A DNA stretch of 64,000 nt. Origin: Patescibacteria group bacterium. GTDB taxonomy: Bacteria > Patescibacteriota > Patescibacteriia > UBA11705 > DATKZF01. Location: the NCBI GenBank assembly GCA_049319825.1, contig JBMORT010000002.1, positions 204,072 to 268,071 of the forward strand, written 5' to 3'. Under the pieces are notes generated by a model. It was not told where the DNA came from and did not search any database. It worked only from the letters and a program-made list of their open reading frames with translations. The translations under genes and the position numbers were made by a program. Numbering within the stretch: the stretch's first letter is position 1; the number at the start of each line of letters is the position of its first letter. This document shows, one piece after another, positions 6,135-50,283 of this stretch.

Positions 6135-6284
6135 AGATTTAATTAATTTTCACCAATTAGTAATTTGGTAAAAAATCGTATTTTGGGATAGTTTAACGTT
6201 ATATAAAGGATTATAATGTAAACTTCGCGGCTTGTCAACGGCCGAGTTTTCGTTTCTTTTTTAAAAAATGCTATAATATAACCA

Positions 6285-6989
6285 ATGAAAAATAAACAAC
6301 AATGGCGTCAGCGGAGTTGGTTCAAACCGACAATGATTATGGTCGGCGTTGTTTTGATAATTACGGCCGTCGAGCTGGCCGTTCATCGTCCTTTTGGTAA
6401 TTTCTTTAGCGCCCTGCTTCATAAAACGGCAGTCAGAACATTTGACATGGAACAAATCGTCACCGCCGCCGATCCTTATCTGGGAGATCAATCCGCTCCG
6501 GTAAAAATAGTGGAATTCGCCGATTTCAATTGTCCGTATTGCCGGGCGGCTTACCCGGTGGTGCGAGAAGTGCTGAGCGAATATCAAGCCAGCGAGGTTT
6601 TTTTTCAGTTTCGGGATTTCCCGGTGGTCGCTGCCTCTTCGGTCTGGCTGGCCATGGCCGGATCATGCGCTCATGAGCAGAACAAATTCTGGCCTTTTCA
6701 TGATAAACTTTTTTTGCGACAGGGGCAGGTAACGGAATCAAACATCGGGCAGCTGGCTCAAACCGCCGGCCTGAATGTCGATTCGTTTCAACGCTGCCTT
6801 GATGGCGAAAAATATAGAAACGAAGTGGCCGACGATTATTTATCCGCGGAAAACAACGCCGTCGACGGCACGCCCACTTTTTTTATAAACGGTTTGATGT
6901 TTCAAGGCGTGCCGGAAAAGGAAAATTTGATAAAAATCATCGATCATTTTTTATCGACACAAGATTCGAAGGTCAAAACGGAGAAGTGA
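6285..6989 (+). CDS. DsbA-family thiol:disulfide oxidoreductase, membrane anchored
   Basis: N-terminal TM helix; thioredoxin-fold CPYC active site (FNCPYCRAAYP). Confidence 0.7.
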   Translation: MKNKQQWRQRSWFKPTMIMVGVVLIITAVELAVHRPFGNFFSALLHKTAVRTFDMEQIVTAADPYLGDQSAPVKIVEFADFNCPYCRAAYPVVREVLSEYQASEVFFQFRDFPVVAASSVWLAMAGSCAHEQNKFWPFHDKLFLRQGQVTESNIGQLAQTAGLNVDSFQRCLDGEKYRNEVADDYLSAENNAVDGTPTFFINGLMFQGVPEKENLIKIIDHFLSTQDSKVKTEK

Positions 6990-7076
6990 AATGAATGGAG
7001 AAATCGGCATTGCGTCTATTGCCGAATTATCGCCGATGTTTAATGTTTGCGGCTTCGCGTTTTAAATTAATTTCAT

Positions 7077-7631
7077 ATGAAAGAAATCAGAATACACGGT
7101 CGGGGAGGCCAAGGAGCGGTGACCGCCGCGGAATTGCTGGCCAGAGCCGTTTTCTATGCCGGAAAATATTCGCAAGCCTTTCCCAATTTTGGAGTTGAAA
7201 GACGTGGCGCTCCGCTTGAGGCTTACGTCCGGGTCAGCGACCAGTCGATCAGGTTGCGCCAGCAGGTTTATCATCCCGATTTTTTGATTATCATGGATAA
7301 AAGCTTATTGATGTCTTCGCGCACCGTGCACGGCGTGAAAAAAAATACGATTGTTTTGGTCAATAGCGAACATCCTTGTCGCTGTTCCAATTTGAAAACC
7401 TACCATGTTCCCGCCACTTCGATCGCTTTGGAGGCTTTGTCGAATCCCAATCTTATCAATACCGCTCTAATGGGAGCTTTCGCCGTCCTGACCGGATTGG
7501 TGACCGCTGATTCGCTTGAGCGAGCCGCCCAAGAAAGTTTTTTTCACAAGGGAGAAGACATTATTCAAAAAAATATCATTGCCATGAAAGTGGCGCGAAG
7601 GTTTATCGAAGAGGAATATTTAAAAAAATGA
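7077..7631 (+). CDS. porG: pyruvate/2-oxoacid:ferredoxin oxidoreductase gamma subunit
   Basis: N-terminal MKEIRIHGRGGQGAVTAAELLA signature of POR gamma. Confidence 0.8.
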   Translation: MKEIRIHGRGGQGAVTAAELLARAVFYAGKYSQAFPNFGVERRGAPLEAYVRVSDQSIRLRQQVYHPDFLIIMDKSLLMSSRTVHGVKKNTIVLVNSEHPCRCSNLKTYHVPATSIALEALSNPNLINTALMGAFAVLTGLVTADSLERAAQESFFHKGEDIIQKNIIAMKVARRFIEEEYLKK

Positions 7632-7682
7632 AAATATTAGCGCTTCGGACAATTATATTCGCTTAAGTTCAATTATTATCTT

Positions 7683-7961
7683 ATGAAAAAGCCGTTACAG
7701 ACCAAGCCCGGCACCTCCCGCTTCAATAATACCGGCGTTTGGCGGACATTTAAGCCCATCGTCGATCACTCGCGCTGCATCGCCTGCGGGATATGCTCGC
7801 GTGTCTGTCCGGAAGGCTGTATTTTTCCGGTCGGAGAAAAAATTCTTCAAAAGGGCGGAAAGGTTTTTTTCGAGCAAGACCTTGATTACTGCAAAGGGTG
7901 CGGCATTTGCGCCCAAGAATGTCCGGTCAAGTGCATTAAAATGATCAGAGAAGAAAAATAA
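7683..7961 (+). CDS. porD: pyruvate/2-oxoacid:ferredoxin oxidoreductase delta subunit (2x[4Fe-4S] ferredoxin)
   Basis: two CxxCxxCxxxCP clusters in 92 aa. Confidence 0.8.
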   Translation: MKKPLQTKPGTSRFNNTGVWRTFKPIVDHSRCIACGICSRVCPEGCIFPVGEKILQKGGKVFFEQDLDYCKGCGICAQECPVKCIKMIREEK

Positions 7962-8011
7962 AATAGCAACCGAAATTGAGATATCAATATGAAAACAGCG
8001 AGTTTACAAAT

Positions 8012-9121
8012 ATGAAAAAATTTCTCGAGGGATCTCAGGCCGTGGCTGAAGTGATCAAGCTGGTCAAACCGGATGTGGTGGCAGTTTATCCGATCACGCC
8101 GCAGACCCATATAATCGAAGCATTGGCTCAATATAAAGCCGACGGTTTGGCCGATTTTGAATATATCAGGGCTGAAAACGAGTTTGCTTCTTCTTCCATC
8201 GTTTTGGGCGCCAGCGCGGCCGGCAGCCGCGTTTATACCGCCTCGAGTTCTCAGGGACTGCTTTTAATGACTGAGGTTTTATACAATATCGCCGGCATGC
8301 GTTTACCAGTGGTGATGACCGCGGCGAACCGAGCAGTTTCCGCTCCGCTGAACATCTGGAACGATCAGCAAGACGCCATGCCCGCGCGCGATTCGGGCTG
8401 GTTGATGTTCTTTGCCAAGGATAATCAGGAGGCGGCGGATCTTCATTTGATGGCTTATAAGTTGGCCGAAAAGCTTTCGTTGCCGGCGATGGTCAATATG
8501 GACGGCTTTGTGTTGACGCACACTTATGAGCCGGTGGACATCCCGACTCAAGCGCAAGTCAATAAATTCATAAAAAAATACGTGCCGAAAAAAAATGCTC
8601 ATCTTAACGTTATCAGCCCGGTCAGTCTGGGCTGCTTTGCCACGCCCGACGATTATCAGGAAATTCGGCTCGAGCTCCACCGTGATTTGCTGGACGCGAA
8701 AAATCTTTATTTGCGGGAATTGAAAAAATTTAAAGCGATATTCGGCAGAGATCTCGGTATCATCGAATATTATGGGCCGAAAAACGCCACCAGAGTGTTA
8801 GTCTCGCTGGGGGCGGTGAGCGGTACGATACGAGCGGCGATTGACGAGTTAAACAAATCCGGACAAACCACGGCCGCGCTGAATATCACGCTGTTTCGAC
8901 CTTTTCCGATTGAAGAAATAAGAAACGCATTAAAAAACAAAAAAGAGGCGATCGTGCTCGATCGAGCCATTTCGTTGGGCAGCGGCGGTATTCTGCATAA
9001 TGAAATTTCCGCTGCCCTGGCCGGGTTGAAAGTGAAGGTCACCAGCCGGGTGACCGGACTCGGTGGCCGAGACATTACGGTCGATCAAATAAAGAAATTT
9101 TTTTCGAGTTATGACAAATAA
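8012..9121 (+). CDS. porA: pyruvate/2-oxoacid:ferredoxin oxidoreductase alpha subunit
   Basis: ORF track starts at TTG 7976; first ATG at 8012 (MKKFLEGSQAVAE..) typical PorA N-terminus. Confidence 0.85.
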   Translation: MKKFLEGSQAVAEVIKLVKPDVVAVYPITPQTHIIEALAQYKADGLADFEYIRAENEFASSSIVLGASAAGSRVYTASSSQGLLLMTEVLYNIAGMRLPVVMTAANRAVSAPLNIWNDQQDAMPARDSGWLMFFAKDNQEAADLHLMAYKLAEKLSLPAMVNMDGFVLTHTYEPVDIPTQAQVNKFIKKYVPKKNAHLNVISPVSLGCFATPDDYQEIRLELHRDLLDAKNLYLRELKKFKAIFGRDLGIIEYYGPKNATRVLVSLGAVSGTIRAAIDELNKSGQTTAALNITLFRPFPIEEIRNALKNKKEAIVLDRAISLGSGGILHNEISAALAGLKVKVTSRVTGLGGRDITVDQIKKFFSSYDK

Positions 9122-11444
9122 AAACAAAATTTTGATTTTTCTGATTTTTTTATCGGCCGCGTCATTTATCGGGCTGGCGCACCGCGTCGAGGCCGCCGCG
9201 GATTTGCAGCAAATCATTCCGCAGCTTCGAATTCCGATCCCTGATATATTGACTGAATTTCAGCAACCGACCTTCAGCACCGAAGGTGATAAAAGCTACG
9301 TGTACATCCCCTGGATCGCTCAGTATATCAGCGCCGTGTATCGCTACTCTTTGGTCATCGCCTCGGTTATATCCGTGATCGCGGTCATGATCGGCGGGTT
9401 TTTATATCTGACCAGCGCCGGCTTTCCATCCAGAATCGAGCAGGGCAAAAAATTTATTTTCGGCGCCATCACGGGCATGGTAATTATTATTTCATCATAC
9501 GTACTGCTTAACCTGATCAATCCGGAATTGGTGCGATTAAAGCCGATTAAGGTGCAAACAGTGGTTGGCGAGGTGGTGGTCGAGGGTGCGGCTTGCGAAA
9601 ATTTGAATCCGACGCAGGTCGCGGTCATTACGCCCACAGGCCCGGCGCGTCCGGATCAGGGACGATTTGCCTGCGCTAAGCCGTATGATGTCACCTCCAT
9701 CAACTCGCAGTATGTGGTGCCGACCGGCCAGCAGTGCCGCGGCGGTCATTGCGAAGATAATCAGGTCTGTACCGCTTCCGGCTGCGTTCAAGGATTGTTT
9801 TATGGCACCATCACTCAGCAGAGCGTGCCCGGATTCGGTTTGCGTTACGTTGATACAATTTATTTGTTTTTGGAAGAAGATGTCACGGGATCATCCGTCC
9901 AATTGACTCTGGGATCGATTTTCGGCACCGGATCGGCGGTGGAGACCGGCAAAGCTATTTATAAACAAGAGTATGGCGATCGCCCGACAAGCTTTTTTAT
10001 TCCCAGAACGCCGGAAGTGGTGAACGCCATTAAAGAAAACGGCGGCCGGGTAATGCTGGGAGTGGAGATCAATGACACCGGACAAAATATCAGCCAAATT
10101 TCAAAAGAATTATACGGAGATTTCGCCGGATTTTTAATTGGTAAGACGACTCCGACTATCGATGACGATTATTTTATCGGGAAAAGCGCCGCAGATCCGC
10201 GGCAGGCCGCCTGGATACAGCCGCAATGCAAAGTTTGTTTTTCTTTCGAAGTTAACGAGTCGGGCAAAGGCTACGCCGCTACCGCCGGTTGCCAGATGTG
10301 GAGCGCGCTCGAGGTGGTCAACAGCACCCAGCCGATCGAAGTAAACATCCGAGTCGGCGATTTTTTGGAAGATTATAACACTCAATCCGTTTGTGATTAT
10401 TCAAAGACATTGACCAAGACCGATGCCAAACCGGGCGGTCAATGTTTGGCCAGTGAATTGTATACCGTGAAAAAAATTGGCGGAGTTGATTATACTTGCC
10501 GGCCGGTGACTGCCAATTCTTCGGAATGGACGCGTCTGGCCGGCGCTCAGCAAAACGAGGTCTGTGACAATTTTGATTTTGTGCAGCCCAATGTTCCGCT
10601 GAACGGCACTGTTCCCGGCAATTGGAACAGCACCACCACCCAAGTGACCTGCGCCGATCAAAATACCGGCTGTTCATGGGCGATCCACGGCGCGACGCAA
10701 TGCGAATCGTCCACGCCGCTGACAAGATTGTACTGCTATGGCCGCTGTTTGGCCGGCGGCAACCAAGCGGTGGTGTCCGCTCCCGGGGAGCGCTGCGCCG
10801 CCGGCGGTGTCTGCGGTAAGTACGCAGGCGATCAATTGATATGTAATTATACTCAAAATATCTGTCAATTTGGAGAATGGGGCGATCAGTGCGTGCGGGA
10901 TGCGGATTGCAAAACTCCGGAATATCGATGCGACACATCGGAAAAAGCATGCGTGCGCACGCAAAAAGCCGCACAGCAGTGGCAGCATTGCATCGATAAT
11001 AATGATTGTCCTCAAGATTACTCGTGTTTGGAGGCGGGGTATACAAATGACTTGACTAAGTGCAAAGGTAATTTATCCAAGATGGCCGATCCGACAGAAG
11101 CGGCAAATTCAGATATCGATTACGGTATTTGCTGGCCAAACGATAAGATTGACGCTGATGGCGATACTGAATCCGATTGGGATGTGTTCGGGGTTTGCTA
11201 TTGCACCAGCTACACCGATTGCCAAGGAAACGTCAATTGGCCCGAAGCGACTTTTTGCAATACCGGCGGCGATAACTATTGCACCAAGCCGATCGCCGGC
11301 GCGCGCTGCGACGATCAGCTCGGGGTCGGTCTGCCTTCGGCGGCGACAAAGATAATCAGCCAGCCATTCCTATATTTGGATATTGGCAATGATTTGATCT
11401 GCACCTCGACCGATATTCTAAAATCCAAAAGACAATTATATTGA
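9111..11444 (+). CDS. secreted/membrane cysteine-rich protein with N-terminal TrbC/VirB2-like two-helix pilin module
   Basis: signal peptide, two hydrophobic helices separated by SAGFPSRIEQGKK loop, then ~600 aa Cys-rich region; overlaps porA stop by 11 nt and ends 1 nt before porB ATG. Confidence 0.6.
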   Translation: MTNKNKILIFLIFLSAASFIGLAHRVEAAADLQQIIPQLRIPIPDILTEFQQPTFSTEGDKSYVYIPWIAQYISAVYRYSLVIASVISVIAVMIGGFLYLTSAGFPSRIEQGKKFIFGAITGMVIIISSYVLLNLINPELVRLKPIKVQTVVGEVVVEGAACENLNPTQVAVITPTGPARPDQGRFACAKPYDVTSINSQYVVPTGQQCRGGHCEDNQVCTASGCVQGLFYGTITQQSVPGFGLRYVDTIYLFLEEDVTGSSVQLTLGSIFGTGSAVETGKAIYKQEYGDRPTSFFIPRTPEVVNAIKENGGRVMLGVEINDTGQNISQISKELYGDFAGFLIGKTTPTIDDDYFIGKSAADPRQAAWIQPQCKVCFSFEVNESGKGYAATAGCQMWSALEVVNSTQPIEVNIRVGDFLEDYNTQSVCDYSKTLTKTDAKPGGQCLASELYTVKKIGGVDYTCRPVTANSSEWTRLAGAQQNEVCDNFDFVQPNVPLNGTVPGNWNSTTTQVTCADQNTGCSWAIHGATQCESSTPLTRLYCYGRCLAGGNQAVVSAPGERCAAGGVCGKYAGDQLICNYTQNICQFGEWGDQCVRDADCKTPEYRCDTSEKACVRTQKAAQQWQHCIDNNDCPQDYSCLEAGYTNDLTKCKGNLSKMADPTEAANSDIDYGICWPNDKIDADGDTESDWDVFGVCYCTSYTDCQGNVNWPEATFCNTGGDNYCTKPIAGARCDDQLGVGLPSAATKIISQPFLYLDIGNDLICTSTDILKSKRQLY

Positions 11445-11445
11445 T

Positions 11446-12360
11446 ATGCCCACCAATCATCCTTATCATTCACCTTTTCAGCATTTAATCAATCCCGGCC
11501 ACACCGCCTGCTCCGGCTGCGGTTTAATCGTGGCCATGATTAATGTCTTGGACGCGCTCGGACCCAATACCATCATCGCCAATGCCACCGGCTGCAGCGA
11601 AGTGATTTCCAGTAAATACCCTCAGACCGCCTTCAAGGTGCCCTGGATTCATTCTTTATTTGAAAATCCGGTGGCCGTGGCTTCCGGAATAGAAGCGTCG
11701 CTTAGAAAAAACGGCAAGTCAGGTGAAATCAACGTGGTCGCCTGGGGCGGAGACGGCGCCATGTTCGATATCGGTATGGGATTTATTTCCGCCTCATGGG
11801 AAAGAAGAGAAAATATAATGATCGTCTGCCTCGACAATGAAGCATATATGAATACGGGCATTCAGGCCAGCGCGGCCACGCCACTGGACACTTATACGAT
11901 GACATCGCCATCGGGAAAAAGATCATGCGGCAATACGCTGACGAAAAAGGACATGGTGCGTTTGGCGCTGGCTCACGACGTGCCGTATGTGGCCACCGCG
12001 ACCATTGGCGATTTGATTGATTTGACCAATAAAGTGAAAAAAGCGGCCAAGATCAAAGGCCCCAAATATATTCAGGTACTGACCACCTGCGTTCCCGGCT
12101 GGAACACCGATCCGAAGGATTCAATCAATCTGGCTCGGCTGGCTCAGCAGACCGGCATTTATCCGGTTCTCGAATATGAATTTGGAAAATTGGCAGCCGT
12201 TAAAAAAGTATCCAAGGATCGGCCGCCGGTCGAGGAATATTTAAAACCTCAGGGACGGTTCCGGCATTTGTTTTCGAAAAGCGGATCTTGTCAGGCTGGC
12301 GTGGCGGCGATACAAAAAATGGCCGATGATAATGTGGAAAAGTTCGGATTGTTAAAATAA
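11446..12360 (+). CDS. porB: pyruvate/2-oxoacid:ferredoxin oxidoreductase beta subunit (TPP-binding)
   Basis: CSGCG motif and GDG..N TPP-binding region (WGGDGAMFDIGMGF..LDNEAYMNTG). Confidence 0.85.
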   Translation: MPTNHPYHSPFQHLINPGHTACSGCGLIVAMINVLDALGPNTIIANATGCSEVISSKYPQTAFKVPWIHSLFENPVAVASGIEASLRKNGKSGEINVVAWGGDGAMFDIGMGFISASWERRENIMIVCLDNEAYMNTGIQASAATPLDTYTMTSPSGKRSCGNTLTKKDMVRLALAHDVPYVATATIGDLIDLTNKVKKAAKIKGPKYIQVLTTCVPGWNTDPKDSINLARLAQQTGIYPVLEYEFGKLAAVKKVSKDRPPVEEYLKPQGRFRHLFSKSGSCQAGVAAIQKMADDNVEKFGLLK

Positions 12361-12605
12361 AATTATAATTTAAGGATAAGGATTAAGGCACCCGAATAAT
12401 GATAATCCCTTGGTGAATTTATTCGAAAGCTTTAATTTTTTTTATTGGAAACGGCTGAATGCCTGGTTTTAAATTTTTGCAATCTCAGGCTATTGCCGCT
12501 TTGATAAATGTATGATAGACTGATAAGCAAGATGTTTAAATACCTCCTGAACGGAGCTTGTGTGAAAGAGGTAATGTGGATTTCCAGTTATATATTTTAA
12601 GACAT

Positions 12606-15476
12606 ATGAACAAAACAATAAAAATAAAAGGCGCGCGGGTAAATAATTTAAAGAACATTTCCTTGGAAATCCCCCGAAACAAATTAATCGTTATTACCGG
12701 ACTGTCTGGCTCGGGCAAGTCTTCACTGGCGTTTGACACCATTTACGCGGAAGGTCAGCGTCGCTACGTGGAGAGCTTGTCTTCTTATGCCAGGCAGTTT
12801 TTAGATGTTCAGGATAAACCCGATGTCGATTTGATAGCAGGTTTGTCGCCGGCGATCGCCATCGATCAGCGCTCTTCTTCCAGAAATCCTCGATCAACCG
12901 TGGGCACGATCACCGAAACATACGATTTGCTGAGGCTGCTTTACGCGAGAATCGGCATCCCGCATTGTCCGGTTTGCGGCCGTGAATTGAAAAAACAGAG
13001 TGTCGACGAGATCGTCGATAAAATTTGGGCTATCGATCATCATGTTAATGTCACTATTTTGGCGCCGGTGCTGCGAGAGCAAAAAGGCAGCCATCGAAAG
13101 ATATTTGAAGAGTTGCAAAAAGCCAATTACTACCAAGTCCGTTTCGACGGCATTATCTATAATATTGAAGAAGCCCTCGCCATGCCGATCGACAAACAGA
13201 AAAAACACACCATGGAAGTGGTCGTTGATCGGGTGTTGCTCGACGGCGACAGAGATTTAAAAAATCAGCTGTCCGAATCGGTGAAAATCGCATTGGATCT
13301 GGGCGACGGCCTGGTTGTCATTCAACGATCGGATACCGAAGAAGATCAGCTTTTCAGCCAATATTACAATTGTCCGGAATGCGGCGTTAATTTCCCGGAA
13401 ATCGATTTGCGGAGTTTTTCGTTCAATTCGCCAAACGGCGCCTGTACGGATTGCTCCGGCTTGGGAACCAAGCAGGAGGTGGATCCCCAGCTGGTGATTT
13501 CCAACCCGCGTTTGACTTTGGCCGAAGGCGCCATCAAGCCCTGGACCAAAATATTTTCCACTCAAACGTCAAATATGCAGCTATTGGAAGCGGTGGCTCA
13601 GAAATATAAATTTTCATTGAATACTCCGGCCGGAAAATTGTCTAAAAAAGCGGTTGAGATCGTGCTTTACGGCACCGGACCCGAATTGTATCACATCGGC
13701 TCAAAATCAATGGCCTTCATCGGGGTGATACCGTTTTTGGAACAGAAATACAAAACGACAGATTCCGATTACATCCGAAAAGAGATTGAAAAATACATGC
13801 GCATGCATATCTGCCCGACCTGCGGCGGTAAAAGATTAAAAAAAGAAAGCCTGGCCGTTACTGTGGCCGGTATCAATATTTCCGAATTTTCGAACTTTAA
13901 TATCGGAAAGATCATCCAGCTCATTGCCGAGGCGTCATTAAGCGTAAAAGTCGCCGGGAAAAAGCTGCCCAGAAAGTTTGATTTAATCAAGGAGCCGCTC
14001 GATCGGCGACAGCTGGGAATCGCCGATCAGATTTTTAAAGAGCTGAAGAGACGGCTCGGCTTTATCGAGGATGTCGGCTTGGGTTATTTAACTCTCGACC
14101 GCAGCGCGGTCACCTTGTCCGGCGGCGAAGCGCAGCGCATCAGGCTGGCAACGCAGATGGGATCAAAGTTGGCTGAAGTGGTTTATGTCCTCGACGAGCC
14201 AACAATCGGTCTGCATCAGGCGGATGTTACTAAATTAATCGGCGCCCTGCAGAGTCTTAAAGCTCAGGAAAACACCGTAATCGTTGTTGAACATGACGAA
14301 TCGACCATGCTCGCCGCCGATCAAATCATCGACATCGGACCGGGTGCGGGTATTTACGGCGGAGAAGTGATCGCTCAGGGAACACCCGAACAAATCAAAA
14401 AAAATCCAAAATCATTAACGGGCCAGTATTTATCGGGCAAAAAAAAGATTTGTGCGACCGTTTCCAATCGAGCCAAACGCGGCAATGGAAAAAATATTTC
14501 CATTAAAGGCGCGACAGCCAACAATTTAAAAAATATCAATGTCGAAATACCGTTGGGGAAATTCGTTTGTATCACCGGCGTTTCCGGCTCGGGCAAATCG
14601 ACCTTGATGACCGATATTTTATCAAAGGCGCTGGCCAGGCAGTTCTATCGGTCAAAAGAATTGCCGGCAGAACATAAAAGTATTGACGGCATTCAGCACC
14701 TGGATAAGGTGATTACGATCGATCAATCACCGATTGGCAGGACGCCGCGCTCAAATCCGGCCACCTACACCGGCGTGTTTACCTATATCCGCGATTTGTT
14801 CACGCAAATTCCCGAAGCCAAAATCAAAGGTTATGACGCGGGTAAATTCAGCTTTAATGTCAAAGGCGGCCGCTGCGAAGCCTGCGGCGGAGACGGATTC
14901 GTTAAAATCGAAATGCAGTTTTTGCCCGATGTTTATGTGATCTGCGAAGAGTGCAAGGGAACCAGATATAAAAAAGAAATTCTGGAAATTCATTATCGAG
15001 GCAAAAACATCGCCGACATTTTGGAAATGACCATTGCCGAAGCCAATGAATTTTTCAGCGATATCCCTATTCTCAAAGAAAAATTGACTGTCTTGCAAGA
15101 AGTTGGTTTGGGCTATTTAAAGCTCGGTCAAAGCGCCACTACCTTGTCCGGCGGCGAGGCGCAGCGCATTAAACTGGCGACCGAACTTTCAAGGTATTCG
15201 ACCGGAAAGACTCTTTACATCCTTGATGAGCCGACCACCGGTCTTCATTTTGACGATATTAACCGACTGCTATTGATACTGAACCGCTTGGTCGATAAAG
15301 GCAATTCGGTGCTGATCATCGAGCATAATGTCGATGTTATCCGGCAGGCTGATTGGATTATTGATCTTGGTCCAGCAGGCGGTGAAAACGGCGGTTATCT
15401 GGTGGCTCAGGGAGCGCCGGCGGACATCATTAGGTCCAAAAAATCATTAACCGGTAAATATTTGAAAAAATCGTGA
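12606..15476 (+). CDS. uvrA: excinuclease ABC subunit A
   Basis: two ABC ATPase modules with Walker [10 protein letters not shown] / GVSGSGKST, zinc-finger CxxC pairs, 957 aa; first ATG in ORF at 12606. Confidence 0.95.
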
Positions 15477-15487
15477 CATTGACAAAA

Positions 15488-15862
15488 ATGCAATTTAATT
15501 ATAAATTAAAAAAGTGCCAAATCGGCGCTTTTTTTGCAGTGAACCAATGCTCTTGGGGGGAAAAGAGCATGACCGGAGCGGCCATCAGTTCGGAAATTAC
15601 CAATGTGCAGCAGGGGAATGACGTATCTCGGGTTTACTGTCGATCTTGCGGCAGCTTGTTGCCGCGATCAGGCATAGCTCTGGTCGATCACCAGCGTTTG
15701 CCCAATTGGGTACGATCATTATTTTCGGAATTGAAACCCAATGAACAGCATATTTTGACATACCACCCGCAGCTGGTTATTTGGCAGCAGTTTTTCCCGC
15801 GGTTGGATTATCTGCCGCTTAAATGCTGTAACTGTAACGGTCCGGTGACTTCAAACGAATAG
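15488..15862 (+). CDS. hypothetical small Cys-containing protein
   Basis: ORF immediately after uvrA; CRSCG and CCNCNG motifs; no family recognised. Confidence 0.3.
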   Translation: MQFNYKLKKCQIGAFFAVNQCSWGEKSMTGAAISSEITNVQQGNDVSRVYCRSCGSLLPRSGIALVDHQRLPNWVRSLFSELKPNEQHILTYHPQLVIWQQFFPRLDYLPLKCCNCNGPVTSNE

Positions 15863-25133: not shown

Positions 25134-25160
25134 AAGAAAGTTTGATTTTTACAGTTGGTG

Positions 25161-26486
25161 ATGATATTATTGAATAAATCAATAAAAAATATGACTCAAA
25201 CATTTATAAAAGATTTTAAAAATTTTAAAGACAAAGAGGTTTCAATCAAGGGCTGGGTTTATAACTTGCGCTCATCGGGCTCGATCATGTTTTTGCAGGT
25301 TCGCGACGGCTCCGGATTCGTGCAGGCGGTTGTTTCCAAAAAAGAAGTTGACGCCAAAGTATGGGAAGAAGCGAAAAAGATTACCACGGAAAGTTCCGTT
25401 GAATTGTCAGGCAAAGTAACCGAACATCCCAAGCAAAAAGGCGTTTTTGAATTGCAGGTTCTCGGCGTGAAAGTGATTCAAGTCGCGGCCGAATATCCGA
25501 TCGGCAAAAAAGAGCACGGCCCGGAGTTTTTATTGGATAATCGTCACCTGTGGCTCCGCTCTCCCAAGCAGTGGGCGGTCTTGCGCGTTCGCAACACGAT
25601 TATCAACGCGACTTACGAATATTTGAATAAAGAAGGATTTATAAAAGTCGACGCGCCGATTTTGACGCCCGTGTCATGCGAAGACACCACCACTTTGTTT
25701 GAAACGGATTATTTTGATTTGGGAAAAGCTTATTTGTCGCAATCGGGACAGCTTTATATTGAGGCCGCGATATTTTCGGTCGGACGCTGCTTTGACTTTG
25801 GTCCGACTTTCAGGGCGGAAAAGTCAAAGACTCGTCGACACTTGACCGAGTTTTGGATGATGGACGCGGAAGCCGCTTTTGTCGAACACGAAGAGAATAT
25901 GAAAATTCAGGAAGGGCTGATTTGCTTTATCATTAAAAAAGTCTTGGAGCAAAATCAATATGAGCTTGGCGTTTTGGAAAGAGATGTCGAGGCATTGAAG
26001 AAAATTAAAGCGCCATTCGGCCGGATGACTCACGCGGAAGCCGTTAAAAAGCTCCAGTCGCTCGGGTCAGACATTAAAAAAGACGATGACCTCGGCGCTG
26101 ATGACGAGACTTTGCTGACCAAAGAAAGCGCGGTGCCGATTTTCGTGGAGAAGTGGCCGGCGAAAATCAAAGCGTTTTACATGAAGATCGATCCGGAAAA
26201 CAATGACGTGGTGCTGGGCTCAGACCTGATCGCGCCCGAAGGCGCCGGAGAAATTATCGGCGGGTCTCAGCGCGAAGATGATTATGATTCATTGCTAAAG
26301 AGAATGAAAGCGCAGAAAATGCCGATCGAATCATTTCAGTGGTATCTTGACTTAAGAAAATACGGCTCAGTGCCGCACAGCGGCTTCGGCTATGGACTCG
26401 AAAGACTTGTTCGCTGGATCTGCGGCCTGCAGCATATCAGGGAAACTATACCTTTTCCGAGGATGATTAATCGGTTGACGCCGTAG
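25161..26486 (+). CDS. asnS: asparaginyl-tRNA synthetase
   Basis: class II core FRAEKSKTRRHLTEFWMMDAEAAF (E. coli AsnRS-like), C-terminal GSVPHSGFGYGLERL..IPFPR; start may be 25191. Confidence 0.85.
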   Translation: MILLNKSIKNMTQTFIKDFKNFKDKEVSIKGWVYNLRSSGSIMFLQVRDGSGFVQAVVSKKEVDAKVWEEAKKITTESSVELSGKVTEHPKQKGVFELQVLGVKVIQVAAEYPIGKKEHGPEFLLDNRHLWLRSPKQWAVLRVRNTIINATYEYLNKEGFIKVDAPILTPVSCEDTTTLFETDYFDLGKAYLSQSGQLYIEAAIFSVGRCFDFGPTFRAEKSKTRRHLTEFWMMDAEAAFVEHEENMKIQEGLICFIIKKVLEQNQYELGVLERDVEALKKIKAPFGRMTHAEAVKKLQSLGSDIKKDDDLGADDETLLTKESAVPIFVEKWPAKIKAFYMKIDPENNDVVLGSDLIAPEGAGEIIGGSQREDDYDSLLKRMKAQKMPIESFQWYLDLRKYGSVPHSGFGYGLERLVRWICGLQHIRETIPFPRMINRLTP

Positions 26487-27368: not shown

Positions 27369-28517
27369 ATGAATAACGCTTTGCCGCAAATATTCAGTAA
27401 AAAATGGTTTCTGGGCATTCGCCGTGAAGAATCCTTATTTTTTTATTCGTCAAAGTTTATTGACCGGGAAAAATTTACCCTGAAAAAGTACGAAAATAAT
27501 TTTGTCGAGTCAATATTAATTCCTCATGAAGATAATGAGCTGATTCGTGCTTTCAATTCCGATCAAGCCAAGCTTTTTCATCAGGAGTCAAAGGAAAAGG
27601 TTCTAAAAGATTTTTCAATAATAGAAAAGTTCATCAGCCATGACGACACGTTATGGGTTGAAATCCAGAAGCTTTCAGAAAAGCTGGCCAAATCGGTTGA
27701 GAAGCTCGACTTCAAAAAAGCGAAAGGAATTTTTCAGCGCATTCTTGAAAAATACGGCGAGCATGGCGCGTATTTTTTCTTTATTTTCTCAGTGGGCATG
27801 ATGCTTGAGGGAAATAAAGAAGAAGTTGCAAACTCAAAGCCGGCTTTGGCCGCGCATGACAAATGGAGAAATGAGGTGGCATTTAAAGAAGAAAAAATGG
27901 GCGAAAACTTGTTTGGGTTTTTTAAATTACTAAAATCTCAAAGCGTTTTGAACACTGCGGAAAAAGAGATGATGGAATTTTTGACTGCCGGTGAAGTCTT
28001 GGCTTTGGCCAGTTGTCAGATAACGAAAGAAGAAATCGAAAATAAAATCGCGCGCCGGAAGCAAAATGGCTATGTCTATTTATATTTGAGGGATTTGCAG
28101 TATCAAGACGTGGTTATTGATGATCTTTCGACAGTTGAAGCTGTTAAAAAATATTTTGAGAGTATGGAAGCGCCGGCAGGCAAAGTGATCGAAGGCCAGG
28201 TCGCTTTCCCCGCGAAAGAGAAAATTATCGGCGAAGCTGTTGTTCTCAAAGATAAAAGCGAATTAGGAAAAGCGGATTTGGCGGGAAAAATTTTGGTCAC
28301 CATCCAAACCACGCCGCATTTTATTCCGTATTTAAAAAATGTTAAGGCGATAATCACCGACGAAGGCGGCATCACCTGCCACGCGGCGATTGTGGCCAGG
28401 GAGTTAAAAATACCGTGCGTCATTGGCACGAAAATTGCTACAAAGATTTTAAAAGATGGCGACAAAGTGGAGGTGGATGCGGAAAAAGGGGTGGTGAAAA
28501 TTATTAAGAATGTTTGA
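27369..28517 (+). CDS. PEP-utilizing-enzyme mobile (phosphohistidine swivel) domain protein with unique 290-aa N-terminal domain (paralog 1)
   Basis: C-terminal ILVT..TTP.F.P..K...[28 protein letters not shown] matches PpsA/PPDK central His domain. Confidence 0.7.
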   Translation: MNNALPQIFSKKWFLGIRREESLFFYSSKFIDREKFTLKKYENNFVESILIPHEDNELIRAFNSDQAKLFHQESKEKVLKDFSIIEKFISHDDTLWVEIQKLSEKLAKSVEKLDFKKAKGIFQRILEKYGEHGAYFFFIFSVGMMLEGNKEEVANSKPALAAHDKWRNEVAFKEEKMGENLFGFFKLLKSQSVLNTAEKEMMEFLTAGEVLALASCQITKEEIENKIARRKQNGYVYLYLRDLQYQDVVIDDLSTVEAVKKYFESMEAPAGKVIEGQVAFPAKEKIIGEAVVLKDKSELGKADLAGKILVTIQTTPHFIPYLKNVKAIITDEGGITCHAAIVARELKIPCVIGTKIATKILKDGDKVEVDAEKGVVKIIKNV

Positions 28518-28523
28518 AATTAT

Positions 28524-29618
28524 ATGTTAAATAAAAAGAAAAAATTAGTTTTTGAAAAATCAATTACTAGGGACTGGCCGCTTTTTATCGTACAAATGTT
28601 GCATAAAGGTTTTACAAAAGAATTTGAAAAACAATTTAAATTTAGATATTTAGAAGTTTTATTTGATTGTTTTTCTGACCATTTAGATATATATAGAGCA
28701 CCTATTGAACATATTGAGAAAATGAGAGCCTTTATTTTAAATAATCTGCGCAGAAATCCCAATTTCATAAGAGAGGTTGCTAAAAAGTTAATAGATTATT
28801 TTGAAAATTTTAAAGATATAATTCATGAAATTGATAATAAAAGTTTAGTTGTAACTTCAAATAAAGAATTGTCACAAATTATAAAAGCTTTTATTAAAGC
28901 ACATCAAGAGTTGGAACCTTGTTTTGTTATGATGTTTTGGTTTCCAATACAAATGGAAAATCATCAAAATAAAGAAAAATATAAGCCAGATATTGATATC
29001 GCGGCAAAAATGCGGGCAAAGACCGAGAAAGTTGGCCCAGAGGGTGATAGAATTGCTAGAAAACTTTCTGAAGAAGTCAGCAGAAGAATGTTTGGGAATA
29101 AGGATTTTGCCAAATTTATTTCTTTAAAAGAAACGCACGCTTTTTTAACAAAGAATAAAAAAGTTAATAAAAAGATTATTGAAAAAAGAAAAAAGGGTTT
29201 TATATACGGAGCTTTAGGAATTAAATATATAAAATTGTCAGACTATGCAAAACTTGAAGGGTTGGAAGTAAAAACAACATTAGCAGACATAAACAATAAT
29301 TACATTAAAGGTTCAATTGCTTACAAAGGATATGTGAAAGGTAAAGTGAGAATTATTATATCAAAGAAAAATATTAAAACCCTGAAAAATGGTGAAATTT
29401 TGGTCACCGCAATGACAACACCTGAATTTGTCCCAGCAATGAAAAAAGCGGCGGCAATTATTACAGATGAAGGCGGCATCACCTGCCACGCGGCGATTGT
29501 CGCTAGAGAATTGAAAATTCCGTGCGTGATCGGCACTAAGGTCGCCACCAAAGTGCTAAAGGATGGCGACCAAGTAGAGGTTGACGCGACCAAGGGGATT
29601 GTCAGGATTTTAAAATAA
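28524..29618 (+). CDS. PEP-utilizing-enzyme mobile domain protein with different N-terminal domain (paralog 2)
   Basis: same C-terminal swivel domain; 32-nt stretch identical at DNA level to paralog 1. Confidence 0.7.
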
Positions 29619-29750
29619 TTTTTATAGAATATTATGGAACGCATGATGTATGTCCCAGGCATGGAAATATTAGGTATCAATAGCGAGTACTTTACAAGTA
29701 ATATATATTATTGTAAGATACACAATGATTGTTATTAATCCTACAATAAT

Positions 29751-31571
29751 ATGCTTGATAAATTATTCAATTCAAAAACCCGCGTGGCTGTTTTAGGCTT
29801 ATTTTTCAATGATGAAGACAAAAAATCTTATATCCAGGAAATCATCAAATCAGCGAAGACAGACGCGGCCAATACTCATCGCGAATTGGATAAGCTTGAA
29901 AAGCTCGGCATTCTAAAGAGCAAAAAACAGGGCAACCAAAAATATTATTTTTTAAATAAAGACAATGCTTACTTCGAAGCTTTGAAAAGGTTGTTCGCGG
30001 TTTACCGCCGGAAAGACGATGGCTGGTACCTGCTCGAAGAAATTCCCAATGGCACTCCCACCTTTGTGGCTGATGTCTGCAATTCCAAGCTGTCAGTGGA
30101 ATGGAATGAGAAAAAAGGCTTCAAATATCCTCCCACGGATTTTCTGACCATCTACCGGAACGGCGTGGCCAGCATTTACTTTGTAAAATCTCAATTCGAT
30201 AAATACAGCCGCAGCATGCTGGACGGCTTTATCGCCGATCCCGCTTCTTTGCACAAAGTGAATGAAGAAATCATCAAGCAGTCGGACAGCTTGCGCGCTT
30301 ATTCACAAAAAGTATCTGCCATGAATCTGAAAATATTGGACGACAAAGAGCTGGGCAGTGTATTTTCTAATTTTTATAGAGAATATGAGCGCACTCATAT
30401 GTGGGCCTGGCCGCATACTGCGCCTGACTTTGGCGAAGCGTATTTATCCAAGTATTCTTTCGCGTATCTTAATGAGCGGCTGAAAAAAACCGGTAAAAAT
30501 TATTCGGTTGGCGAGATTTTCTCCAAGCTGACTTCGCCGACAGAGGAAAGCAATGCCCAAAAAGAATATCGCGACTTGCTTGCGATTTTGGATTATATTT
30601 TAAAGGAGAAATCATTGAGCCAATACTTTGCTGAAACCGAAACCCGCTTTATCCTGCGCGACCTGATGAAAAAAAATGAAAAGGCCTGGCAGATGATCGT
30701 CAATCATACTGATAAGTACGGCTGGCTGGGCTATGGCCTGATCGGCCCTGGCTGGAGCGAAGAGTACTTTATTGATATTTTGTGCAGCTTGATCAGGCAG
30801 CAAAGCGATCCGCAAAAGCTTTTGGCCAAAATCGAAGCTGAGAGGAAGGAATTGGCAAAGGAGCAGGAAAATATTTTCCAAGAGCTAAAAATTGACGACA
30901 GGAATCGAGAATTCTTTATCGGCGCCAAAGGCCTGGTCTTCACCAAGGGTTATCGAAAAGATTCATTATTCTACTTTTTCAGCGTGCTGGAAAATATTCT
31001 CAATGAATTGTGCAGAAGATACTATTTGTCAATGAACCAGGCGCGAATGCTCTTCCCGCATGAGATCGAAGATATATTAGGCGGCCAAAGCTTTGACTTC
31101 TCGGTTTTGAATGACAGGCAGAAATTATGCGCGCACTATTCAGCCGGACGCACCGATTATTGGAATGACACCATTGTAATCGGCGCTGAAGCGGAGAAAT
31201 TGATCAATAAGCTGCAATTCATTGAAGAAGACATTTCTGATATTAAAATTTTGAACGGCGAATGCGCCTCGCCCGGCAAATCCAGGGGCCGGGCCGTGAT
31301 TGTCAATGTCACGAAGGACATGCAGAAAATGAAAGACGGCGATATCTTGATTTCCATTGCCACCAATCCTGACCTGGTGCCGGCCATCAAGCGCGCCTCA
31401 GCCATTGTCACTGATGTGGGCGGGATCACCTGCCATGCGGCCATTATTTCCCGCGAGCTGGGAGTGCCCTGCGTCATTGGCACGAAATACTCGACCAAAG
31501 TGCTCAAAGACGGGGATATCATCGAAGTCGATGCCACGCACGGCAAAGTGACTATTATTAAAAGAGCGTAA
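29751..31571 (+). CDS. wHTH plus large middle domain plus PEP-utilizing-enzyme mobile domain protein (paralog 3)
   Basis: N-terminal ArsR-like wHTH, ~420-aa middle region, C-terminal [22 protein letters not shown]. Confidence 0.7.
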   Translation: MLDKLFNSKTRVAVLGLFFNDEDKKSYIQEIIKSAKTDAANTHRELDKLEKLGILKSKKQGNQKYYFLNKDNAYFEALKRLFAVYRRKDDGWYLLEEIPNGTPTFVADVCNSKLSVEWNEKKGFKYPPTDFLTIYRNGVASIYFVKSQFDKYSRSMLDGFIADPASLHKVNEEIIKQSDSLRAYSQKVSAMNLKILDDKELGSVFSNFYREYERTHMWAWPHTAPDFGEAYLSKYSFAYLNERLKKTGKNYSVGEIFSKLTSPTEESNAQKEYRDLLAILDYILKEKSLSQYFAETETRFILRDLMKKNEKAWQMIVNHTDKYGWLGYGLIGPGWSEEYFIDILCSLIRQQSDPQKLLAKIEAERKELAKEQENIFQELKIDDRNREFFIGAKGLVFTKGYRKDSLFYFFSVLENILNELCRRYYLSMNQARMLFPHEIEDILGGQSFDFSVLNDRQKLCAHYSAGRTDYWNDTIVIGAEAEKLINKLQFIEEDISDIKILNGECASPGKSRGRAVIVNVTKDMQKMKDGDILISIATNPDLVPAIKRASAIVTDVGGITCHAAIISRELGVPCVIGTKYSTKVLKDGDIIEVDATHGKVTIIKRA

Positions 31572-31575
31572 AAAT

Positions 31576-32514
31576 ATGTTCACAAAAATTTTCAAGGAAT
31601 TAAACTATAAAAGCGTCGACATCGCCGGCGGCAAAGGAGCTTCGCTGGGAGAAATGACTCGGGCCGGCATTCCGATTCCTCCCGGATACGTTGTTTTGGC
31701 CGGAGCTTTTGATAAATTTTTGGAAGAAACGGATTTAAATGTGGAAATAAAGGCTGTGATCGACGAGGTTAATTACGAAGACGTGAAATCAGTTGACGTA
31801 GCGTCGAGCAAAATCAGAGATTTAATCGCTGATGCGGATTTTCCGGCAGATATTGCCGGCGAAGTCCAAGAAGAATTCAAAAAATTGGGCGCTGAATACG
31901 TGGCGGTGCGAAGTTCAGCCACGGCTGAAGATTCTTCGATCGCTTCCTGGGCCGGCGAGCTGGAAAGTTATTTGAATGTTAAAGAAAAAGGCCTGCTTGA
32001 CGCAGTGAAAAAATGCTGGTCGTCTTTATTTACTCCGCGGGCGATTTTTTACCGCAAAGAAAAAGGATTGATCGACAGCAAGGTTTCAGTCGCGGTGGTG
32101 ATTCAAAAAATGGTCAATAGTGAAATTGCCGGCATTACCTTTACAGTTCATCCGGTGACCAAGGATCCGAATCAAATAATCATTGAAGCCGGATTCGGTC
32201 TGGGCGAGGCGATAGTTTCCGGCAGTATTACCCCCGATAGCTATGTGATTGAAAAAGATACCTGGAATATCATTGATATCAATGTGGCAGAGCAGGAGCG
32301 CCAGCTGGTTCGCGTGCCGGCCGGCGGCAACGTTTGGAAGGAGCTGCCTGCAACTAAGAAAGAAAAGCAAAAATTGACCGGCGAGCAAGTGGTTGAATTG
32401 GCACAATTATGCTATGACATTGAAAAGCACTATAATTTCCCGTGCGATATTGAGTGGGCGTTTGATGCCGGCAAGTTTTATATAACGCAGTCAAGGCCGA
32501 TAACGACTTTGTGA
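31576..32514 (+). CDS. stand-alone PEP synthase / pyruvate phosphate dikinase N-terminal ATP-grasp (PPDK_N) domain protein
   Basis: GGKGASLGEM, VRSSATAED, DIEWA..GKFYITQSRP motifs align with E. coli PpsA N-terminal 320 aa; no His or TIM-barrel domain in this ORF. Confidence 0.75.
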   Translation: MFTKIFKELNYKSVDIAGGKGASLGEMTRAGIPIPPGYVVLAGAFDKFLEETDLNVEIKAVIDEVNYEDVKSVDVASSKIRDLIADADFPADIAGEVQEEFKKLGAEYVAVRSSATAEDSSIASWAGELESYLNVKEKGLLDAVKKCWSSLFTPRAIFYRKEKGLIDSKVSVAVVIQKMVNSEIAGITFTVHPVTKDPNQIIIEAGFGLGEAIVSGSITPDSYVIEKDTWNIIDINVAEQERQLVRVPAGGNVWKELPATKKEKQKLTGEQVVELAQLCYDIEKHYNFPCDIEWAFDAGKFYITQSRPITTL

Positions 32515-34132: not shown

Positions 34133-35479
34133 ATGGACAGAACGCTCAATTTGGAGGTAGTCAATAAAAAAGGAGAGGAAGTGATGATCGAAGGCTGGGT
34201 CGATGGCCGCAGAAACATGGGAAAAATCGTGTTTCTCGACATGCGCGACCGCACCGGAGTTCTGCAGGTCGTTTTGGTGCCCGGCGAGCTCGATAAAGAT
34301 TCCCAAAAACTGATTGATAACATCAGGCCGCAATTCGTATTGGCGATTGAAGGCATCGTTAACGAGCGGACAGGCAAAAACGCCAATCCGCAGATGGAGA
34401 CCGGCACAGTGGAAGTGCTGGCTAAAAAAATCACGGTTTTGGCCGAGGCGGAAACGCTGCCTTACGAGCTTGGTTCGGAAATGAAAATGGATACGTACCT
34501 CGATAACGCGCCGCTCAATTATCGAGATGAAAAAGCAAGAGCGATTTTTAAAGTGCAGGCCGCGTTGATACAGGGTTTTAGGAGCTTTTTAACGGCCGAA
34601 GGTTTTACCGAATTCCAGGCGCCCAAGCTGGTGGCCGAGGCCACTGAAGGCGGCGCCAATGTTTTCAAAATCGATTATTTCGGCAAAGCCGCTTATCTGG
34701 GCCAGAGTCCGCAATTTTACAAACAAATTATGACCGGCGTCTATGAGCGGGTTTTCACCTGCGGAAACGTTTATCGGGCGGAAGCGCATCACACATCACG
34801 GCATATTAATGAATATACCTCGCTTGATTTTGAAATGGGATTTATCAAAGATCATACGGATGTGATGGACATGACTCGCAGAGCTTTGACGGCAATGATG
34901 AATAACGTGGTTAAAAATTGCGATAAGCAAATCAAACTTCTTGATGCGGCCGTGCCCGAAGTGCCGGCGGAGATTCCGGCCTTGAAATTGGCCGAAGCGC
35001 AGAAAATTTTAAAGCATGAATTCGGCCAGGACTGCGAAGGCGAGCCGGATCTCGAGCCGCACCATGAAGAATTGATCTGCCAGTATGCCAAGCGGGAATT
35101 TAATTCTGATTTTATTTTCATCACTCATTATCCGGTCGAAAAAAGGCCGATGTACACCATGCCTGATGAAAAGGATAAGGGAAAGACCAAAAGCTTTGAC
35201 CTGCTTTTCCGCGGCTGCGAAATAGTGACCGGCGGTCAGCGTATCCATGACTATGAAATGCTGCTTGATAATATTAAAAAATTTAAAATGGATCCCCAGG
35301 ACTTTGAATTTTATTTAGAGGCGTTCAAATACGGCATGCCGCCCGAAGGCGGGATCGGCATGGGGCTGGAGCGGGTGACCCAAAAACTGCTTGGCCTGGA
35401 AAATATCAAGCAGGCCACGCTGTTTCCGCGCGATGATGTAAGGATAGATTTGCCTTTAAGTAAAGAAAATAACAAATAA
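34133..35479 (+). CDS. aspS: aspartyl-tRNA synthetase, archaeal/eukaryal type (likely non-discriminating)
   Basis: class II core YRAEAHHTSRHINEYTSLDFEM; C-terminal GMGLERV...LFPRD..RI.P. Confidence 0.8.
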   Translation: MDRTLNLEVVNKKGEEVMIEGWVDGRRNMGKIVFLDMRDRTGVLQVVLVPGELDKDSQKLIDNIRPQFVLAIEGIVNERTGKNANPQMETGTVEVLAKKITVLAEAETLPYELGSEMKMDTYLDNAPLNYRDEKARAIFKVQAALIQGFRSFLTAEGFTEFQAPKLVAEATEGGANVFKIDYFGKAAYLGQSPQFYKQIMTGVYERVFTCGNVYRAEAHHTSRHINEYTSLDFEMGFIKDHTDVMDMTRRALTAMMNNVVKNCDKQIKLLDAAVPEVPAEIPALKLAEAQKILKHEFGQDCEGEPDLEPHHEELICQYAKREFNSDFIFITHYPVEKRPMYTMPDEKDKGKTKSFDLLFRGCEIVTGGQRIHDYEMLLDNIKKFKMDPQDFEFYLEAFKYGMPPEGGIGMGLERVTQKLLGLENIKQATLFPRDDVRIDLPLSKENNK

Positions 35480-47162: not shown

Positions 47163-47172
47163 TAAAAACCTC

Positions 47173-48189: not shown

Positions 48190-48231
48190 CTGATTCCTCC
48201 CGATTGGTTTAATTTCATCCAAATTCATATT

Positions 48232-48825: not shown

Positions 48826-48827
48826 AT

Positions 48828-50276: not shown

Positions 50277-50283
50277 AATTATA

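Follow-up and report, generated by a model that had tools for sequence, protein, structure and literature searches.

A cysteine-rich, predicted surface protein with a T4SS_pilin-like hairpin is encoded between porA and porB in a dsbA-por gene cluster of Patescibacteria

We analysed a stretch of 64,000 nucleotides from a Patescibacteria group bacterium (assembly GCA_049319825.1, contig JBMORT010000002.1, positions 204,072 to 268,071; here called the window), in which a gene of 777 codons, termed X777, lies between porA and porB of a four-subunit pyruvate/2-oxoacid:ferredoxin oxidoreductase (POR) cluster headed by a gene for a DsbA-like thiol:disulfide oxidoreductase. On balance, we favour the reading that X777 is a Sec-exported surface protein of the T4SS_pilin family (T4SS, type IV secretion system), oxidised by DsbA, co-expressed with the por genes and likely used in adhesion or host contact, and that it is not a subunit of POR. 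New here are a member of the T4SS_pilin family with a new cysteine-rich ectodomain and the conserved por context in which it is found; VirB2-like pilins were already known from the Candidate Phyla Radiation (CPR, Patescibacteria), and one orthologue (P0003) carries the name 'pilin' at NCBI.

For comparison, 80 loci were fetched by PorA from GTDB contigs with one genome per species, and the proteins of the window together with a hidden Markov model (HMM) of the hairpin module were mapped onto them. Loci with a dsbA homologue and with both porA and porB present were taken as complete loci of the Patescibacteria type (n=43). One or two module genes stand between porA and porB in 33 of these, two loci have a module gene only directly after porB, and eight have none; 11 further loci, on contigs ending shortly after porA, carry a module gene directly 3' of porA, and elsewhere in the flanks the module was matched only once. 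Each of the 43 complete loci has a dsbA homologue upstream of porG, compared to none of 14 loci from outside the CPR (labelled Zixibacteria, Ignavibacteria, Gammaproteobacteria, Omnitrophota, Firestonebacteria and Desulfobacterales), in every one of which porA and porB are adjacent and a module gene is absent. Over 34 loci, the median distance was 18 nt from porA to X, as we call the counterparts of X777, and 14 nt from X to porB, with several 4-nt overlaps of the ATGA type at porA/X. The linkage is kept in nine loci in which dsbA-porG-porD is inverted relative to porA-X-porB. The closest relative, the P0003 locus in GCA_035528115.1 (L084/L085; L numbers denote loci), is syntenic with the window over RNase J, SBP, SecG, DsbA, porG, porD, porA, X, porB, UvrA, a response regulator, L19 and Gmk.

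In a neighbour-joining tree of porA, the dsbA-type loci form one clade and the loci without the module a single subclade (L005, L008, L011, L014-L016, L020, L023), a pattern most simply explained if dsbA and X were gained once in an ancestor and X was later lost once. The earlier note on this DNA had described the gene as an unusual insertion into an operon that is normally contiguous, and had proposed to look for the same insertion in related por loci. The por operon is indeed split, and contiguity does hold for the 14 non-CPR loci, but the split is shared by most of the Patescibacteria loci and is, with its dsbA partner, an apparently ancestral feature of the clade rather than a local one.

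Several public taxonomic labels in this set look wrong: L085 (GCA_035528115.1) is labelled Candidatus Bipolaricaulota, and many dsbA-por-pilin loci are labelled 'uncultured Gammaproteobacteria' (binchicken metagenome-assembled genomes, MAGs, e.g. L006-L009), which the porA tree places with Patescibacteria. One contig, L092, encodes a full-length X orthologue (753 aa; L092:1-2898) immediately 5' of uvrA, with porB missing behind the gene, and begins inside the C-terminal part of another cysteine-rich gene; it may represent a lineage that keeps surface-protein genes after the loss or relocation of por.

Within the window, the order porG, porD, porA, 777-aa reading frame, porB was given by the earlier note together with the 11-nt overlap with porA and the 1-nt gap before porB; both borders can be read directly from the sequence, and all four por genes are supported by Pfam and NCBIfam (Table 1), with the pyruvate-synthase PorC, PorD, PorA and PorB models as the best NCBIfam matches. 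The TTG start of porA at 7976 is uncertain, as another gene caller chose the ATG at 8012 (369-aa call on L001). GC content at third codon positions (GC3) is 0.572 for X777, 0.568 for porA and 0.567 for porB. Upstream of the porB ATG, no Shine-Dalgarno-like motif was found. Promoter-like and terminator-like sites in the cluster were not in excess over the shuffled expectation, terminator-like sites on the + strand were absent from dsbA to porB, and no known RNA element was detected in the cluster region, the three tRNAs of the window all lying elsewhere. Co-transcription of X777 with its neighbours, previously called almost certain, is very likely, because the gene is tightly packed in the por operon (-11 and +1 nt) and the + strand shows no terminator or promoter signal above chance.

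X777 has the layout of TrbC/VirB2 proteins, namely a predicted signal peptide followed by two hydrophobic helices with a short, predicted cytoplasmic loop between them; signal peptide, helices and a short basic loop had been noticed before and were recovered by hydropathy analysis. The N-terminal hydrophobic segment ends in an AXA-type site (VEA/A); cleavage is predicted after residue 28, which would leave a mature protein of ~749 aa with a C-terminal ectodomain of 627 aa. The transmembrane (TM) helices, at residues ~72-103 and 114-140, enclose the basic loop SAGFPSRIEQGKK (SRIEQGKK). AlphaFold2 (AF2) modelled the module as a helical hairpin; the core model reached a mean local confidence (pLDDT) of 76.5 and a pTM of 0.70, while pLDDT values in the tail are mixed (35-83). 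The protein contains 38 cysteines, all of them past residue 161 and thus after TM2. This is fewer than the more than 60 that had been ascribed to the ~600-aa domain, but the enrichment remains strong, with 6.1% cysteine in residues 151-777 vs 1.07% in 52 other proteins of the window.

The full-length orthologues are a small set (P0003-P0008, P0011) with 28-37% identity. In an alignment of 12 orthologues, 26 cysteine columns are invariant, ~20 invariant columns being located in the tail, and several more are conserved in at least 90% of the sequences. Because these 26 columns are absolutely conserved at such low overall identity, the ectodomain is, to judge from the alignment, a constrained, disulfide-stabilised structure. 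X777 also follows the pattern of a DsbA substrate: its cysteines are conserved and occur exclusively in the part predicted to be extracytoplasmic, with disulfides predicted, and the DsbA-like protein of the same cluster has, on sequence reading, an N-terminal TM segment and a CPYC active site at residue 83. The PDB offered no specific structural relative of the ectodomain: a sequence search with the family profile returned nothing below E 0.4, and Foldseek returned no match; weak Dickkopf-type matches were seen for the tail in relatives and in the PDB. Neither Pfam and NCBIfam nor the PDB sequence and structure searches revealed a hydrolase or other enzyme signature in the ectodomain, which we regard as a candidate new extracellular fold.

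Table 1. Features of the dsbA-por cluster, of X777 and of the small pilin gene (positions refer to the window).
Feature	Position	Strand	Evidence
DsbA-like gene, membrane-anchored thiol:disulfide oxidoreductase, first gene of the cluster	6285..6989	+	Pfam Thioredoxin_4 5.7e-31, DSBA 1.7e-21
porG/porC, gamma subunit of four-subunit pyruvate/2-oxoacid:ferredoxin oxidoreductase	7077..7631	+	Pfam POR 2.9e-40; NCBIfam PorC_KorC subfamily 188.6 bits (cut-off 81.1)
porD, delta subunit (2x[4Fe-4S] ferredoxin-like)	7683..7961	+	Pfam Fer4 families; NCBIfam PorD_KorD 93.4 bits (cut-off 60.05)
porA, alpha subunit	7976..9121	+	Pfam POR_N 5.7e-70, PFOR_II 4.7e-25; NCBIfam PorA_Arch 442 bits (under equivalog cut-off 550)
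X777, predicted exported 777-aa protein, T4SS_pilin-like membrane hairpin and Cys-rich ectodomain	9111..11444	+	
Overlap of porA 3' end and X777 start, 11 nt (translational-coupling geometry)	9111..9121	+	
Predicted Sec signal peptide, residues 1-28, h-region ILIFLIFLSAASFIGLA, cleavage motif VEA/A	9111..9194	+	Hydropathy; A-x-A-like motif aligned in orthologues
T4SS_pilin/VirB2-like module: IPWIAQYI motif, TM1 (~72-103), cytoplasmic basic loop (104-113), TM2 (114-140), INPELV motif	9300..9563	+	
Ectodomain core, residues 150-500: membrane-proximal 6-Cys knot (C162, C188, C209, C214, C220, C225), then beta-rich domains, conserved motifs LxIExND and PTIDDDYY	9558..10610	+	
C-terminal Cys-rich tail, residues 501-777, small disulfide-knot modules (C..D.DC...C type)	10611..11441	+	
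X777 TGA stop (11442-11444), one base, porB ATG (termination-reinitiation geometry)	11442..11448	+	
porB, beta subunit, thiamine pyrophosphate (TPP)-binding	11446..12360	+	Pfam TPP_enzyme_C 4.6e-19; NCBIfam PorB PRK11865 341.5 bits (under equivalog cut-off 405)
Small 176-aa T4SS_pilin/TrbC-family gene, paralogue of the X777 module	48325..48855	-	PF18895 41.8 bits (gathering threshold 26.6), PF04956 28.1 bits (gathering threshold 27.9), X-module HMM 45 bits

X777 is assigned to the T4SS_pilin family (PF18895) through its relatives and not through its own score, as 49 of 55 collected relatives match PF18895 at E <= 1e-3 (best 3.7e-11); a precomputed PF18895 match of orthologue P0004 is graded 'weak'. 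Against PF04956 (TrbC), X777 gave no match at E <= 0.1, and none was obtained in NCBIfam. The module shared with the small pilin at 48325..48855(-) had been proposed before, with an end of the gene at 48825. An hhalign comparison of a 20-sequence module alignment with this protein gave a probability of 96.9% (E 1.6e-10, 64 columns) and, since the small pilin is a bona fide family member, the homology holds, but its reading frame ends at 48855. In an exhaustive HMMER search, 13,835 representative clusters passed E <= 1e-3, and almost every match was limited to residues ~30-155; a word-indexed protein search returned just two partial matches with X777 and four with the orthologue alignment as the query, the latter all restricted to the N-terminal module.

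Paralogues carry the same hairpin fused to Amidase_2 (P0001, P0021), to a lytic transglycosylase/SLT domain (P0153), or to C39-like and M15/VanY peptidases. Since such fusions to peptidoglycan hydrolases are found at another conserved locus, the VirB2-like hairpin is, as far as the sequences tell, also a general anchor for exported domains in the CPR, which changes how 'pilin' annotations in CPR genomes are to be read. This second conserved home of the module lies beside ClpB and a PD40/TolB-like gene (L002:4813-9605, L003:3952-5481, L090:4147-7715), where the module is fused to Amidase_2, C39-like hydrolases or other cysteine-rich domains, often in tandem paralogues. Directly upstream of the small pilin in the window are two tandem RelA/SpoT homologues (482 and 542 aa, each with HD_4, RelA_SpoT and TGS; 48828..51912 (-)), the first of which overlaps it by 28 nt, so that here, too, a pilin gene is packed against housekeeping genes.

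Between the window and the GCA_035528115.1 locus, identity amounts to 80% for PorB and UvrA, 79% for PorD, 70% for PorA, 48% for DsbA and 32% for X, which thus diverges 2-3 times faster than the POR subunits. Across the loci, X varies in copy number (1-3), in length (178-959 aa) and in place (before porA, between porA and porB, after porB), and its cysteine content is nearly always 3-7%.

Under the reading we favour, the X777 gene would be an ancestral resident of a dsbA-porG-porD-porA-X-porB cluster, co-transcribed with the por genes and in translational-coupling geometry toward both porA and porB, the latter probably being translated by reinitiation after the X stop codon. As a consequence of this co-transcription and packing, synthesis of X would always accompany that of POR and reach a similar order of magnitude, as would befit an abundant structural surface protein. 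After removal of the signal peptide, the protein is expected, by the positive-inside rule, to sit in the membrane as a hairpin with its N-terminus outside, the basic loop inside and the C-terminus outside, displaying a 627-aa ectodomain that may be stiffened by up to 19 disulfides, for which the membrane-anchored CPYC DsbA of the cluster is the likely oxidase. Since X would be a substrate of Sec and the signal recognition particle (SRP), the por mRNA should be tethered at the membrane while X is being synthesised. X would then be abundant at the cell surface, evolve fast and serve in adhesion or host contact, perhaps displayed on a VirB2-type filament or next to one, with its expression locked to central catabolism. 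Such a role is suggested by the rapid divergence of X, by its changing copy number and ectodomain, by weak fold matches of adhesin-like and fimbrial-like type, and by the epibiotic lifestyle of cultivated Patescibacteria (PMC12102498). The idea of the earlier note that the arrangement could couple expression of the gene to POR is in this sense reasonable, but a direct role in POR is unsupported, given some 10 cytoplasmic residues, the variability of the protein and its loss in one subclade.

A number of observations weigh against this reading. On its own, X777 scores only 18.2 bits with PF18895 (E 0.0026, residues 69-136), below the gathering threshold of 26.6 bits. DsbA is kept in the subclade that lost X, and is therefore not dedicated to X. 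The 64-kb window contains no T4SS machinery (VirB4, VirB6, VirB3), its recognisable matches being all of the housekeeping type (46 proteins, covering most reading frames of at least 120 aa), so that a link to a pilus is unsupported here. Moreover, the slot accepts other genes. Small accessory genes stand between the last module gene and porB in about 10 loci, and the porA-porB interval repeatedly contains a tiny gene pair of ~71 aa ('MIYFTKYAEKKF..LNKH') and ~69 aa ('M.YDPEANI.SWEI...', a weak DUF2283 match), which was found in L017, L022, L025, L028, L034, L035, L037 (e.g. 7940-9018), L046 and L054, sometimes with HigB/HigA or RelE-like toxin-antitoxin pairs. A four-helix protein of the 23S_rRNA_IVP family (122-127 aa, 109 bits) is encoded in the porA-porB interval of two distant loci, between porA and X in L084 (5604-5972) and after X in L054 (8299-8679). 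X is replaced by an NTP_transferase gene (glucose-1-phosphate nucleotidyltransferase-like) in L005 (7156-7986) and L016 (7128-7940), which belong to a Buchananbacteria-like, module-less subclade, and by an unrelated anchored protein in L018. Because toxin-antitoxin pairs, the 23S_rRNA_IVP protein, the NTP transferase and an unrelated anchored protein all occupy the slot, the porA-porB junction is a permissive cargo site, which fits the data as well as selected co-expression does.

The gene might accordingly be a historical hitchhiker, the pilin-module gene being merely the oldest occupant of a permissive slot, with no selective value beyond free transcription. We consider this a real but minor possibility. 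Besides the other cargo, it would account for the loss of X without loss of POR in one subclade, for the variable copy number and position, and for the L092 orthologue that directly precedes uvrA with no porB following. It sits less well with the fact that a clade both deep and diverse has retained X (33 of 43 loci) through inversions and ~50% divergence of the por proteins, with the tight coupling distances, with the near-absence of module genes from the flanks (a single match) in a family of thousands of members, and with the por operons of the same type outside the CPR, which are free of insertions in 14 of 14 cases. A further possibility, which we judge unlikely, is that X is a polymerising pilin or pilus-tip subunit in a T4SS-type filament of small pilins such as the one at 48325..48855, its ectodomain pointing outside as an adhesin. 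The homology of the module to that pilin and to PF18895, a structural similarity to a conjugative pilin, and the VirB2-like pilins with variable arrays that are widespread in the CPR and essential in one cultivated strain (PMC12102498) speak for it. A domain of 627 aa per subunit would, however, be sterically hard to fit into a VirB2-type helical lattice, genes for VirB4, VirB6 and VirB3 are missing from the 64-kb window, and the peptidoglycan hydrolases borne by the same module in paralogues suggest a generic membrane anchor. In favour of display, both termini face outward in known VirB2/TraA pili, so that a C-terminal fusion would be exposed on a pilus.

That X is instead an accessory of POR, either as a membrane tether or as a redox path from ferredoxin/POR to extracytoplasmic thiol-disulfide chemistry by way of DsbA and the cysteine-rich domain, appears highly improbable. 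In its favour, the three-way linkage of dsbA, por and X is conserved only in this clade, and during translation of X the polycistronic por mRNA should be kept membrane-bound. Against this, only ~10 residues (SRIEQGKK) are cytoplasmic, the TM helices have no cysteine or cofactor motifs, X diverges 2-3 times faster than the POR subunits and has a length of 178-959 aa, one subclade and all non-CPR relatives have POR but no X, and X777 has no POR-family match in Pfam or NCBIfam. DsbA-type thiols (about -120 mV) cannot reduce ferredoxin (about -400 mV), and POR produces rather than consumes reduced ferredoxin; direct redox coupling of DsbA or X to POR was rejected as unlikely on grounds of topology and redox potentials. 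Finally, an assembly chimera, a frameshifted fusion or a recent mobile or foreign gene has nothing in its favour except that a split por operon is odd a priori, and is refuted by the comparative data to the point of having practically no weight. An identical 14.3-kb sequence is present on a Logan contig (L001) built with another assembler, although probably not from an independent sample; orthologues are placed likewise in the syntenic GCA_035528115.1 and in dozens of MAGs; over 2.3 kb, frame 0 is uninterrupted, compared to 27 and 37 stops in the two alternative frames; GC3 equals that of porA and porB; and the gene and its surroundings are free of repeats, tandem ones included, with no tRNA or integrase genes at its borders. 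The frameshift or chimera at the gene borders that the earlier note had named as a possible objection is thus absent.

Returning to X777 as an exported, por-co-expressed surface protein, this account can be extended to a rather speculative one, to which we assign little probability: dsbA-porGDA-X-porB may form a functional unit specific to Patescibacteria in which synthesis of the major, fast-evolving host-contact protein of the cell is coupled to pyruvate oxidation both stoichiometrically, by translational coupling to porA and porB, and spatially, since the por mRNA would be held at the membrane while X is inserted co-translationally, the ectodomain being a disulfide-knotted fold not seen before. 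The capacity for attachment would thereby follow the catabolic flux, with POR assembling at the membrane below the site of contact.

Among known systems, the VirB2-like pilins of the CPR (PF18895, PF04956) are widespread and often form variable arrays near virB4 (Microb Genom 2025, PMC12102498). X777 shares with them the signal peptide, the two-helix hairpin with its short basic loop and homology at profile level, as well as the restriction to the CPR, the multiple variable paralogues per genome and the fast evolution. It differs in that canonical T4SS_pilin members have ~100-180 aa and are often arrayed near virB4, whereas X777 has 777 aa, including the cysteine-rich C-terminal ectodomain of 627 aa, and belongs to a por operon whose 64-kb surroundings are free of T4SS genes. 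Conjugative pilins are likewise set apart by a mature subunit of ~70-130 aa that packs in a helical pilus, as against ~749 aa in X777. The Gram-positive anchored peptidoglycan hydrolases of T4SSs (PrgK/TcpG/VirB1-like) resemble it in combining an N-terminal anchor with an exported domain, but X777 has no hydrolase signature; closer to it are the CPR hydrolase paralogues P0001, P0021 and P0153, which have the very same hairpin module at 38-52% identity. DsbA-dependent cysteine-rich adhesins and chlamydial cysteine-rich envelope proteins offer, like X777, an extracytoplasmic cysteine-rich protein encoded beside a DsbA-type oxidase, but are unrelated to it in sequence and fold, and a linkage of such an oxidase-substrate pair to the operon of an anaerobic Fe-S enzyme is not known there. 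A DsbB or VKOR partner did not appear in the window.

The por genes themselves correspond to porGDAB of the archaeal/Thermotoga type, with clear PorC/G, PorD, PorA and PorB homologues in canonical order. However, canonical operons and the 14 non-CPR loci have no dsbA and a porA-porB gap of 50-288 nt between the aligned parts, where the Patescibacteria junction is split by 0.65-3.2 kb of cargo. The nearest conceptual parallel to this linkage is provided by the Pam pili of the CPR, which are conserved beside ATP-synthase genes and for which a coupling of surface structure and metabolism has been proposed (bioRxiv 10.64898/2026.03.03.709456). Both are CPR-specific surface or filament genes in conserved linkage with core energy-metabolism genes. 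Pam pilins, by description, are Ig-like donor-strand-exchange subunits with chaperone-usher-like partners and lie in the neighbourhood of ATP synthase, mainly in Saccharimonadia and Microgenomatia, whereas X has a VirB2-like hairpin and lies inside the POR operon. In the library that was searched, no description was found of a fusion of the pilin module to a large, conserved cysteine-rich ectodomain, of its conserved position inside a por operon, or of a DsbA partner.

Patescibacteria may make up a large share of bacterial diversity, and little is known on how they recognise hosts or connect their minimal metabolism with the cell surface. As a counterpart to the Pam-pilus/ATP-synthase linkage, the locus offers a specific instance in which surface-metabolism coupling can be tested, and also a synteny marker by which the protein in the porA-porB slot, a rapidly evolving candidate host-interaction family, can be found even where sequence similarity fails.

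As the orthologues in L084 and L054 have a bAvd-like gene for a neighbour, X777 was considered as a target of a diversity-generating retroelement. This was rejected: there are no template/variable (TR/VR) repeats and no reverse transcriptase (RT), and the small gene is of the 23S_rRNA_IVP type, scoring 20.6 bits against bAvd, below 40. Direct repeats of at least 40 nt were absent from positions 6000-12600 of the window and from L084, and L054 showed one AT-rich 41-nt pair that looks like chance; no reverse transcriptase was present among the called genes of the por loci checked.

Downstream of the por cluster, a 129-aa reading frame of 5.4% cysteine (15473..15862 (+)) without a Pfam match overlaps the uvrA stop by 4 nt; L001 also has a reading frame at this place (124 aa). 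Further along, at 27369..32514 (+), three tandem genes (382, 364 and 606 aa) all have a PEP-utilizers mobile domain at their end, and a PPDK_N ATP-binding protein (312 aa) is encoded separately behind them. This stretch has a low GC content (0.34-0.36 at 27-30 kb) and looks like a split, triplicated PEP synthase/PPDK-like system. It is flanked by two paralogous class II tRNA synthetase genes of the Asp/Asn/Lys type, ~8 kb apart (25155..26486 and 34133..35479 (+)). A GC spike of 0.589 at 47001..48000, compared to a window mean of ~0.45, falls within an SPFH/Band7 gene (47173..48228(-)).

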